A stretch of 61,457 nt of DNA from an uncultured Ectothiorhodospiraceae bacterium (lineage in GTDB: Bacteria; Pseudomonadota; Gammaproteobacteria; S012-40), in contig CAZWUO010000002.1 of assembly GCA_964636675.1 (NCBI GenBank), forward strand, positions 1 through 61,457. Direction: 5' to 3'. Under the pieces are notes generated by a model. The model was given only the letters and a program-made list of their open reading frames with translations. It did not search any database and was not told the DNA's origin. The translations under genes and the position numbers were made by a program. Shown here in pieces: positions 36,151 to 41,250 of the stretch (the stretch's first letter is position 1; the number at the start of each line of letters is the position of its first letter).

Positions 36151-39100
36151 ATGAACACTTCTACCAAAACCCAAAAATCTAACACGCAAAACCACTCGCC
36201 AGCTCAAACAGAACACAAAAAATCGAGTTCCGATGCCCATGGCTTAGCTAACTTACAAAGTGCCATTGGTAATTTGGCTTTACAATCTTTAGTTCGTCCT
36301 ACAAACACGACAGAAAACTCATCCACCATTCAGCGCAAAGCCAACACCGGTTCACCCGACCATCACCCCCAACAAGCATTAAACTTGTTGGACAAAAGCC
36401 ACAGCCAAACCTTAGACGCCGATAATCGCCATCATTTTCAAAATCGCTTAGGGCAAGATCTTGGCGATGTGCGTATACACACCGATGAGCGTGCTCAACA
36501 AGCCAGCCAGTTATTAAATGCGCGGGCGTTTACGCAAGGACAGCACATTGCTTTCGGCCGAAATTATTCACCGAGCAGCCGCGAAGGCCAACGCTTAATG
36601 GCTCATGAATTAGTCCATGTTATTCAACAACGCAACGGTCTGGCTACAAAACAGGGTGTTGGCGAGGTGAATGACCCACATGAAAAACAAGCTAATGAGT
36701 TTGCCAGCGATCTGGGTAACAAAAAAACCTCCGCAAACATTCACCCACAATCTTTAGCTGTGCCGCAAACGCAAGGCTCGAATGTAAATTCAAAAAGTAT
36801 ACAGCGTTATCCAGGTGAAGATGAAGAATGTGTTGCAACAGAGGAAGGAGAGGAAGAATACGCGTCGGGATTTGATGAACCCGTTTGCCGTGAACCGCCT
36901 CCAGAAGAGTTTCCCGAACCTTTAGTTTGTGAGCCGCCGGAAGCTATACCAACAACAATAAATTTTTCTTGGGCTGCGCTTAAAAGCCCGGCTGGAGATG
37001 AAATACCGGGATTAACGCATAGCGTTGACGTCGGTGTATTCAACGATTTTCATAGTGATGTTATTCTATACGCTATCGACCGGGAGGAAGTTTTTGCGAC
37101 GGAAGAAGAAGCGCGTTATCCCGTATGTGAGCAAGAAGATATTCCTGAATTCGATTTAGGTGCCACACCAGAACAACGTGGCTTTAGGACGCCGCCTATA
37201 ACCACCTATGGCGGCATTCTTTGGACTGCAGAAGGCCCTATTTCTGTTGTCTACATGACACCTGACTATGTTGTGACGACCGACTATGTAAAATTTGCGA
37301 CCGGTGCCGCGGCTTTTACTATGGTCAACACGGCAGAAGGCCTGATGTTAGTAGATGCCGGCGCACAGCTTCCTTTTGGTCGTGGCAGCCAGGCCTTAGC
37401 TGAAGCCGCTGTGTTGCAGTTAGTTGAAGTCGCGGCGGGACGGCCTATTGTTAAAGTCATTTTAACCCATACCCATGCGGATCATATCAATGTGTTGCCT
37501 TTGCTGGCCGAACACATGGAAATCGGCATCATTCGTCTCACCGCACGGCAGGCTGAGCGCGGCGTGTTTCAACGTACTTTGGCGGCGGTGGAACAAGCAC
37601 AACAAGTATACCGTGATGTTAATTTACCAAGTCGTTTGCGTAGTGAATTGGCTGCACAACGTGAGGCGTGGGTACGCGAACAAAATGTGGCGGTACGCAG
37701 TTCGCCCGAGCGTTTGGATGCCGCGTGGAATGACTATGTAGAAACACGCGTCGCCATTGCGCAAGAACAAGTGCGGTTTCCCACGATAGAGTTAATTATT
37801 GGCAATGAAAGTCGCCCTGTCGTTGTGGAAGCGGATTTGATTCGTGAACCCGGCCGTATTCGTGCCGAAGTCCCCGCAGAAACGGCCCGCGGCTCACGTA
37901 TTGCCATGCCTTTACGTGAAGGTTCGGTGACCACATTTTTACATCCCGACTCCGATGCAGCCAGTGGTTTTCACCCAGACACCCATTCTGCCAATTTAAT
38001 CATAGAAATGCCCAACGGTGAACACCTGGTCGTACTGGCCGATGTTCGTGACCGTGATATCACGGCTATGCGGGAGCAATTCGAAAGCGCATTACGTGAG
38101 GCTGGCTTGGCTGAACGAGTGCGTATTTTAGATGCGACCCATCATATGCAGCGCGGTATGTTTACTCGCGACGCAGGGGGGCATTTAGTCAGCAGTCAAT
38201 TTTTAGTTGATGCGAGTCGTATGTTGGCACAACTGGCGGCTGAACCCAGTGCCTCTGGCCAAACGGTGCGTAGCGCGGTAGTGGTTGGTGGCGACGAAGG
38301 CCGTTTAAGCGCCGGTACTGTCTGGTTTATGCGTGAACTTGGTTATGAAGCTTACGTGACGACAGACGCAAGTACTGTGCGTATGCTTAGTATATTGGAG
38401 GGGCAAGGAGAGCACCACTTAAGTGGTTTAACTGGTGAGCCGCAGGGTGGCTTGCGGCCTAGCAATGCGCTGATTCTGCGCGCGGGTTTAGAAATAAATC
38501 GTGCCGAACAACAAATACGTCAACTCGATGAACGTATCGAAAGTGAAGGTGCGAATCCCGACGTGGTGGCAGAACGTACGCGTATAGAAACACGTATGAC
38601 AATCCCCCGTCAATTGCTGCACGACTATATGGATCAGTTTAACCAAGAAATTGGTCGCAGCAGTGTTAATCGATCCGGTGTAACGCGTCCACCCGCAGTG
38701 GCTCCACCGGAAGGCGGTGTTGCGCCTGCCGTTGCCGAAGCCCAAGCGCTGACCACGCATTTAGATGCTATTGGTGCGGAGCGTCCATCTGGAGCAGCTT
38801 TGCAACCGTTGAGCGAACCTGTTCTTGTGTTAATCGACCGCGCTCAAGGGTTGGAGTTGAGCGCACGGCAAATACAAATCCGCGAACATCTACGTAATAT
38901 CGAAACCTTACGCAATACGGTCGCTGGTGCAGAGTCATTAGTACGTGGTTCACGGCTAAGTTTAATGGCGGAAATGGCCGTCTTAGCGCCGTTGCTTGAA
39001 CAAGAACTCGAAGGTTTAGAAGGCGAAGACCGAGATTTCATTGAACGTGAAGTAGAGAGGCTTAGAGAGGGTGCACGTACGTTGGAAAGCGCTATGCGTA

Positions 39101-41250: not shown

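Follow-up and report, generated by a model that had tools for sequence, protein, structure and literature searches.

A stretch of 61,457 nucleotides (nt) from an uncultured Ectothiorhodospiraceae bacterium (contig CAZWUO010000002.1 of assembly GCA_964636675.1; hereafter the window) carries a complete operon for an extracellular contractile injection system (eCIS) and, behind it, a gene for a giant protein of 1699 amino acids (aa), which combines a DUF4157 domain (eCIS_core in current Pfam naming) with a metallo-beta-lactamase (MBL)-type domain and a large, mostly helical C-terminal domain. We consider it probable, at roughly 60%, that this gene encodes a cargo, i.e., an effector, of the eCIS of the same operon, that it belongs to a conserved family of DUF4157 proteins of ~1600–2000 residues, and that its product is loaded, injected and acts as an MBL hydrolase. 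The window protein is thus most plausibly assigned to a family that is itself new but falls into an established class, the DUF4157 eCIS effectors. A preliminary description of this DNA had proposed a chimeric payload with an architecture unusual for an injected effector. The open reading frame (ORF), the DUF4157 domain, its HExxH motif and the THTHADH stretch all lie where that description had placed them; its list of domains (DUF4157, MBL-type HxHxDH domain, hydrophobic helical block and long helical C-terminal region) is right, and the payload reading fits both the locus and the literature (PMC8213781, PMC8894135).

The genomic position of the gene is that of an effector. Profile searches identified three DUF4157 genes after the eCIS operon, encoding 433, 1699 and 552 aa in this order 3' of an AAA+ ATPase gene, and this is the canonical effector position of eCIS (PMC8213781); beyond them lie unrelated genes, namely those of a BT1-family major facilitator superfamily (MFS) transporter, an RND efflux system and sensor kinases. 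The AcrB-like pump of this RND system has its best matches, in a scan of GTDB genomes, in uncultured Gammaproteobacteria (81 and 76% identity) and in Thiohalophilus (75%), which points tentatively to a gammaproteobacterial host, given that efflux pumps can be exchanged between genomes. The ORF of the window protein begins with ATG, encodes 188.5 kDa with a pI of 5.0, and is the largest of the eCIS cluster, the second largest encoding 1127 aa. DUF4157 is a core eCIS domain located N-terminally to diverse toxins, with linkers that can exceed 1000 aa (PMC8213781), and it was detected in 24 of 27 relatives of the window protein, at 25% identity family-wide. Ahead of it, the first 87 residues comprise 83% polar or disorder-promoting residues with a mean Kyte-Doolittle (KD) hydropathy of -1.15 and a net charge of +3, as judged from composition, and are poorly conserved (34% identity to the relative P0002, 7% family-wide).

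The nearest functional precedent is AlgoCIS, in which the DUF4157 proteins Cgo1 (498 aa) and Cgo2 (1228 aa, 134 kDa) fill the tube lumen (PMC8894135), and in which loading needs a disordered N-terminus and an AAA+ protein that probably unfolds the cargo, DUF4157 itself being dispensable (bioRxiv 10.64898/2026.05.27.728243). The window protein resembles Cgo1 and Cgo2 in its N-terminus, predicted here to be disordered from its composition, in the DUF4157 domain, in a large variable C-terminal part and in being encoded with an eCIS; by analogy, its N-terminal 87 residues are a candidate loading sequence, and the AAA+ ATPase, from the literature on Pvc15 and Alg15, is the probable cargo loader. 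It differs from Cgo2, likewise very large and shown to reside in the lumen, in being ~470 aa longer and in devoting its C-terminal part to an MBL domain and a 715-aa alpha domain. Cgo2 was not visibly among the family matches described below, with no direct comparison made. The question raised in the preliminary description of how a protein of this size could be loaded into a tube is largely answered by Cgo2, although no cargo as large as 188 kDa has yet been shown to be loaded. By a rough volume estimate, 188 kDa corresponds to ~2.3e5 cubic angstroms; in a lumen ~4 nm wide, this would take up a few tens of nanometres of length, and one copy would therefore fit.

To delineate the family, 1.84 billion cluster representatives were searched exhaustively with HMMER and a profile of aa 760–1699. 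At E <= 1e-3, 112 of them matched, and 79 did so at E <= 1e-30; an earlier word-indexed homologue search had retrieved three relatives only (67, 66 and 39% identity). Eleven segment hidden Markov models (HMMs) were mapped onto these matches for domain order, and about 50 representatives of 1500–2900 aa were found to follow the order DUF4157, MBL N-terminal half, insertion, MBL C-terminal half, middle region, hydrophobic block and tail, while sharing 21–30% identity with the window protein. The same order at this level of divergence argues for an old, conserved architecture, and the word chimeric is therefore not supported. Nor is the claim of an unusual architecture, since the same order recurs in these ~50 representatives and Tme, a giant effector discussed below, provides a precedent (PMC11126660). 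Most of the shorter matches span only part of the domain order and are probably contig fragments. The metagenome-assembled genomes containing family members are named Moraxellaceae, Bacteroidota, Pseudomonadota and Blastocatellia, and the proteins themselves are recorded publicly as 'DUF4157 domain-containing protein' or 'hypothetical'. A scan of GTDB species representatives with narrow patterns from four close relatives yielded no family member, and a tblastn search of plasmid and phage collections with the C-terminal region yielded nothing. In seven of the ten loci that are informative on at least one side, the family gene stands beside or inside an eCIS operon. It adjoins an AAA+ gene in the window, in L001 (divergently oriented) and in L092, L093 and L094, in the last three of which it lies directly downstream; in L006 and L088, it lies in mid-operon, with the spike genes on one side and gp25 on the other.

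The putative enzymatic centre lies in the MBL-type domain, the N-terminal half of which is well supported at the sequence level. Pfam Lactamase_B (PF00753, clan CL0381) matches aa 390–459 and, at 26.2 bits, exceeds its cut-off of 22.7, though the match covers profile positions 9–70 of 196 only; it is found in 25 of 27 relatives with a best E of 6.1e-12. HHalign aligns the family's N-terminal half with a glyoxalase II profile, built from sequences in the PDB search output, at 95% probability (E 3.6e-8), and profile matches in the PDB across motifs 1 and 2 include aCPSF1, RNase J, Pce/CbpE, SdsA1 and BcII. Canonical MBL genes, sought in the relatives' loci as a source for a control profile, were not found there. 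The identity of this half is 28% family-wide. Its motif 1 residue, D402, is retained in 50 of 51 representatives (98%), and HxHxDH occurs once and only once in each of the 51; by chance, this motif is expected ~1.5e-3 times in 1699 aa according to a rough estimate from residue frequencies. An insertion of ~130 aa, present family-wide, then separates motifs 2 and 3; its helices (aa 471–540) reach a predicted local distance difference test score (pLDDT) of 73–90 in a shallow AlphaFold2 model from four sequences.

For the C-terminal half, the case is made by conserved residues. Without exception, 52 sequences have D610, D631, R633, H664, H665 and G731, within the consensus D..S..Y ... V.PD.R ... 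HH[ML]Q.G. In the MBL superfamily, motifs 3, 4 and 5 are expected at spacings that match the D610/D631/H664 pattern, and the distances here are 21 aa (D610 to D631) and 33 aa (D631 to H664). From these residues at canonical spacing, we infer an MBL C-terminal half. The preliminary description had pointed to DATHHMQRG (aa 661–669) as a source of later metal-binding histidines; H664 and H665 within it are indeed invariant in the 52 sequences, but no alignment to a known MBL supports their assignment. The invariance of the putative metal ligands across such divergent proteins argues that the enzyme is active; the domain would be catalytically competent, with a putatively complete MBL fold. In sharing the motif 1 Asp, HxHxDH in a beta-strand context, and a later invariant Asp and His-His at canonical spacing, it resembles MBL-fold phosphodiesterases, nucleases and related enzymes such as Pce/CbpE, aCPSF1, RNase J, the C-terminal domain of ComEC and glyoxalase II, and phosphodiesterase or nuclease action, the commonest activity among the nearest matches, is the most likely one. 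It differs from these enzymes in the ~130-aa helical insertion between motifs 2 and 3, in an Asp in place of the motif 3 His, in the distinctive motif 5 HH[ML]QxG, and in that the sequence match ends at motif 2. As no MBL subfamily can be assigned, a substrate is not transferable from known enzymes.

Several observations weigh against the proposal of a loaded, injected and catalytically active MBL effector. The motif 3 position is occupied by the invariant D610, where the canonical residue is His (His at 608 and 612 being confined to the close clade), so an acidic ligand, though possible, would be non-canonical. A PDB sequence search with the C-terminal half profile gave no relevant match, and HHalign of this half against glyoxalase II gave a probability of 0.25% (0.1% in local mode); a low-stringency extension sets H664 opposite GloB H165, without posterior confidence. 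The MBL fold proposed in the preliminary description is well supported by sequence for the N-terminal half; for the C-terminal half it is inferred in the face of negative profile searches. The only model of the MBL region (AlphaFold2, aa 236–1010, four sequences) is poor, with a pLDDT of 45, and the Foldseek matches obtained with it are weak, with Pce/CbpE in first place (E 2.9e-3 and 7.8e-3; for 1wra, the alignment spans 127 columns). In a published survey, Lactamase_B was depleted in eCIS operons (odds ratio 0.44). Three of the relatives' loci speak likewise: no eCIS genes were seen in ~2–6 kb upstream and 10 kb downstream in L003 and L005, or in 10 kb downstream in L091, the only side seen there. 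In addition, six distant relatives carry a partner gene, described below; an HMM built from the six partner proteins detects no counterpart either in the window or at the loci of the close relatives, so that the biology of the window's clade may differ. Finally, loading, injection, toxicity and catalysis of the window protein are all predicted from genes and models.

The hydrophobic block (aa 1011–1175) is the best-conserved segment of the protein, with 83, 78 and 54% identity to P0002, P0003 and P0004, and with 35% identity and 2% gaps family-wide, ahead of the MBL and DUF4157 domains. The preliminary description had seen four strongly hydrophobic helices here; the peaks are where it placed them, but KD values over 19 residues reach only 1.45–1.68 for three of them (aa 1076–1096, 1111–1132 and 1140–1162) and stay below 1.4 for the first, and aa 419–440 in the MBL region also reach 1.55. 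On a simplified, position-independent Hessa insertion scale applied to the best 19-mers, the block scores +3.2, +4.5, +7.0 and +8.6 kcal/mol, membrane proteins of the same window (the BT1-family transporter and AcrB) score -2 to +2 kcal/mol, and none of the four helices attains hydrophobicity in the transmembrane (TM) range. Across 52 relatives, the medians of the four helices are 5.3–7.9 kcal/mol, and the median of the best 19-mer elsewhere in the proteins is 6.6 kcal/mol. Conserved charged residues (R1075, E1086, D1094 and D1102) lie within the helices, G1031 is invariant and G1073 and G1145 are nearly so, and the two helices at ~aa 1106–1134 and 1139–1160 are almost uniformly apolar, with a short RSPNP loop between them.

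An AlphaFold2 model of aa 985–1699 from a 53-sequence alignment has a mean pLDDT of 87.9 (83–92 in the block helices), a predicted TM-score (pTM) of 0.85 and ~25 helices. Block and tail are thus predicted to fold as one compact 715-residue domain rather than as a TM block with a coiled-coil tail. The idea of a membrane-insertion block is not supported as stated: the helices fall short of TM-range hydrophobicity, and in the model the block forms part of a compact domain that looks soluble. The ~500-aa helical tail of the preliminary description is helical from aa 1176 to ~1610, but it is followed by a beta domain, which recurs in part of the family, and it folds together with the hydrophobic block. 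With the model as query, Foldseek gave no match at E <= 1e-3: the best one in the PDB has E 0.07 with a TM-score of 0.13, and the best one in BFVD has E 0.1. Pfam, NCBIfam, PHROGs and PDB sequence searches likewise gave no match for the C-terminal region. The model thus confidently predicts a compact, novel-looking fold without a solved structural relative in the PDB.

The role of this C-terminal domain gives rise to the strongest alternative, which we regard as unlikely: that it, rather than the MBL domain, is the real toxin, being membrane-inserting, pore-forming or self-translocating in the manner of colicins or the diphtheria T domain, with a buried apolar hairpin (~aa 1106–1160) shielded by amphipathic helices; the domain would depolarise the target or bring the MBL domain across a membrane, which spells out the membrane idea of the preliminary description. 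A buried apolar hairpin is a feature of soluble toxins such as those with colicin pore domains, the diphtheria T domain or the hydrophobic region of clostridial toxin delivery domains, and moderate, not extreme, hydrophobicity is what is expected of toxins made as soluble proteins. The window protein shares with them the combination of an enzymatic domain and a helical domain containing two adjacent, almost uniformly apolar helices of moderate hydrophobicity, and the resemblance of its apolar pair to their buried hairpin may be taken as a lead only. The short RSPNP loop that joins the apolar pair, the standing of the block as the best-conserved segment, its conserved small-xxx-small motifs and its conserved glycines (G1031, G1073, G1145) point the same way, as do Tme and Sle1, CIS effectors with predicted TM hairpins, Sle1-C being partly found at membranes (PMC11126660, PMC13277306). 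It speaks against this alternative that no helix, here or in most relatives, has a TM-like insertion energy, the medians being no better than elsewhere in the proteins; that conserved charges lie inside the hydrophobic helices; and that no structural or sequence similarity to the soluble hairpin toxins was detected by Foldseek or PDB sequence search, none of the Foldseek matches to colicin, Bcl-2, ClyA/Hbl or clostridial delivery domains being significant (best PDB E 0.07; Hbl-B E 1.9). An extended form of the idea is similarly doubtful, namely that the 715-residue domain is a new membrane-active module whose hairpin inserts, forms a pore or translocates the MBL hydrolase across a membrane not crossed by the spike; these proteins would then be eCIS effectors of a self-translocating type resembling AB toxins, and the CxxC partner described below would be their immunity protein or chaperone.

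Two further readings have little in their favour. Tme (BN159_7576) of the Streptomyces davawensis CIS is a 2247-aa protein with an N-terminal DUF4157 domain, predicted TM helices, coiled coils and a nuclease (PMC11126660), and it resembles the window protein in its giant size, in the position of DUF4157, in having a hydrolytic domain alongside hydrophobic helices and long stretches of helix, and in being the largest ORF of its cluster; a giant effector joining a hydrolase to hydrophobic helices thus has a precedent. The window protein might accordingly be a tape-measure-related component, extended in the tube with DUF4157 contacting spike and baseplate, and forming after firing a conduit in the membrane, to which the MBL domain would couple the processing of nucleic acids. 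Being the cluster's largest ORF and having an N-terminal DUF4157 domain are two criteria for tme-like genes (PMC11126660), Streptomyces DUF4157 proteins bind spike-complex proteins (PMC13277306), and the genes of L006 and L088 lie inside the operon between spike genes and gp25. In Tme, however, the nuclease is EndA-like and C-terminal, whereas the MBL-type domain here precedes the hydrophobic block; Tme has remote tape-measure homology and ~70% predicted disorder, whereas the present family shows no tape-measure PHROG or Pfam match among 27 relatives, only non-significant BFVD matches to tape-measure or minor tail proteins (E >= 0.1, TM-score < 0.15) and a C-terminal 715 aa predicted to be compact (pTM 0.85) without an extended coiled coil; and tme-like genes lie immediately upstream of the baseplate genes, a place taken in this family by the genes of the two distant relatives in L006 and L088 only, whereas the window gene follows the AAA+ gene and the window has a separate candidate tape-measure gene with a weak CIS_TMP match. 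Hence, we hold a Tme-like role to be improbable. The same low standing is given to the view that the protein is not injected at all, and acts in the producer (particle maturation, lysis or release, or degradation of self-DNA) or is exported otherwise, with DUF4157 as a shared adaptor. The three loci without eCIS genes in the sequence seen nearby (L003, L005, L091) would fit it, DUF4157 also occurs in effectors of type VI secretion systems (cited in PMC11297309), and eCIS toxins, many of which have no immunity gene, may help to lyse the producer (PMC8213781, discussion). Yet seven of the ten informative loci are eCIS-linked, the family gene usually standing directly after the AAA+ gene, and the layout of N-terminal region, DUF4157 and C-terminal part is that of proven lumen cargo (PMC8894135).

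If the window protein is an eCIS effector, as we favour, the following sequence of events can be proposed. The AAA+ ATPase would recognise the polar, basic N-terminal ~87 residues and feed the largely unfolded chain into the lumen; contraction of the sheath would then expel the protein into or onto the target cell, where it would refold. There, the MBL-type domain would act as a binuclear metallo-hydrolase, most likely a phosphodiesterase or nuclease, that is toxic to the target or modifies it, an activity suggested by the invariant ligand positions. The 715-residue alpha domain would be an obligatory partner module, inherited with the MBL domain in essentially all members. One may speculate that it targets, or associates with, the membrane or envelope of the target cell and so positions the hydrolase; a membrane or translocation role of this kind is speculative.

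Among 1130 DUF4157 candidates, 983 are without a second annotated domain (PMC11297309), and most predicted eCIS effectors are without a known activity. With respect to the eCIS-associated toxins (PMC8213781, PMC11297309), MBL is not among the eCIS-enriched domains, and no listed toxin was found with the present C-terminal module. The present analysis defines a large, phylum-spanning family among predicted eCIS effectors, with a putative enzymatic centre consisting of the invariant HxHxDH, D, D and HH, and it offers a confidently modelled 715-residue domain without a solved structural relative, together with a partner gene conserved in many members. If the protein is loaded, its 188 kDa exceeds the eCIS cargoes so far shown to be loaded, which bears on the capacity of these particles for engineered protein delivery, and if the C-terminal domain is membrane-active, it would show how an eCIS cargo reaches compartments beyond the puncture site. 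The features concerned are listed in Table 1.

Table 1. Features of the window protein, genes of the window, and genes at the loci of relatives (positions for relatives are those of the respective locus; single numbers are gene starts).
Feature	Position (nt)	Strand	Remarks
ORF of the window protein	36151..41250	+	1699 aa
N-terminal region, aa 1–87	36151..36411	+	Polar, basic; candidate eCIS loading sequence, probably disordered
DUF4157 / eCIS_core (PF13699), aa 88–163	36412..36639	+	Pfam E 7.4e-27
HELVH (HExxH), aa 152–156	36604–36618		Inside DUF4157 domain
Acidic Pro-rich linker and short beta module, aa 236–335	36856..37155	+	Conserved Cys C246, C260, C326
MBL N-terminal half, aa 340–460	37168..37530	+	Motif 1 D402, motif 2 HxHxDH
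Motif 1, D402	37354–37356
THTHADH	37465–37485
Motif 2, H440-x-H442-x-D444-H445, aa 440–445	37468–37485
Insertion between motifs 2 and 3, ~130 aa, aa 461–590	37531..37920	+	Mainly a long hairpin of helices
Putative MBL C-terminal half, aa 591–760	37921..38430	+	D610, D631, R633, H664-H665
D610	37978–37980
D631 and R633	38041–38049
H664-H665	38140–38145
Helical middle region with Pro/Ala-rich linker, aa 761–1010	38431..39180	+	Helices modelled at low confidence
Conserved hydrophobic helical block, aa 1011–1175	39181..39675	+	Most apolar helix pair ~aa 1106–1134, 1139–1160
All-alpha region, aa 1176–1610	39676..40980	+	Packs with hydrophobic block as one domain
Small C-terminal beta domain, aa 1611–1699, and stop codon	40981..41250	+	Strands ~aa 1617–1690 in model
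GerE-type response regulator	5953		eCIS operon, first gene listed
Pvc16_N cap	7384		eCIS operon
Sheath, 1127 aa	9239–12622		eCIS operon
Tube	12714		eCIS operon
Sheath	13259		eCIS operon
Tube	15294		eCIS operon
LysM tube-like protein	16186		eCIS operon
gpD hub	16888		eCIS operon
Spike	18099		eCIS operon
gp25	19750		eCIS operon
gpJ	20169		eCIS operon
gpI	22136		eCIS operon
Candidate tape-measure gene	30435–32384		Weak CIS_TMP match
eCIS AAA+ ATPase (WHD + AAA)	32350..34497	+	PF00004 E 2.4e-27, PF22977 E 6.6e-19
Upstream DUF4157 protein, 433 aa	34674..35975	+	PF13699 28.2 bits; probable second cargo
Downstream DUF4157 protein, 552 aa	41285..42943	+	PF13699 22.2 bits vs cut-off 22; probable third cargo
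Giant gene, L006	10001–15412		Mid-operon
Giant gene, L088	10001–15070		Mid-operon
Partner gene, L091	5723–6586
Partner gene, L005	11141–11995
Partner gene, L094	15739–16578
Partner gene, L092	14981–15874
Partner gene, L093	16169–16987
Partner gene, L088	15067–15957

The partner gene encodes 272–297 aa and lies directly downstream of the giant gene in all six distant members examined in which downstream sequence is available and no other gene intervenes; in three of these six loci, it overlaps the giant gene by 4 bp. The six partner proteins are mutually homologous (BLASTP E 8e-5 to 1e-102) and each has two CxxC pairs, and Pfam gave no family match for any of them. The partner may be an immunity protein, a chaperone or a co-effector. 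In L088, the giant gene and its partner lie on the strand opposite to the eCIS operon, and this arrangement together with the mid-operon placement suggests a mobile effector cassette.

Some members depart from the common domain order by additions. In 13 of 51 representatives (P0016, P0021, P0027, P0028, P0032, P0037, P0042, P0047, P0048, P0052, P0055, P0056 and P0068), an extra, degenerate segment resembling the MBL N-terminal half, but without HxHxDH, precedes the intact HxHxDH domain and looks like a partial internal duplication. P0005 (2610 aa) and P0013 (2937 aa) have a second DUF4157 domain, and look like tandem fusions of two effectors or like read-through in gene calling. The three cysteines of the linker module in the window protein are invariant among four close relatives, the module itself being detected in part of the wider family only, and the middle region (aa 761–1010) was likewise detected in some relatives only. 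An LPD22 match in the middle region (18.7 bits against a cut-off of 28.6, in one of 27 members) is probably due to chance, and a Peptidase_M78 match, below its cut-off and also in one of 27 members, was rejected.

Within the eCIS operon, the sheath domains of the 1127-aa sheath protein are confined to the last ~270 residues; the ~850 aa that extend it N-terminally contain a stretch resembling FliMN_C below threshold. An ORF among the structural genes (24386–26086) has at its end a ComEA-like helix-hairpin-helix (HHH_3, E 2.7e-9), which as a DNA-binding motif is unusual for a tail-fibre or baseplate region. The N-termini of all three DUF4157 proteins of the window are polar and basic, with net charges of +8 (34674–34862), +3 (36151–36411) and +5 (41285–41446), and short motifs common to the three, of the kind GN.A.Q..L and IQR, were noted by eye ahead of DUF4157; these may represent a system-specific loading signal.

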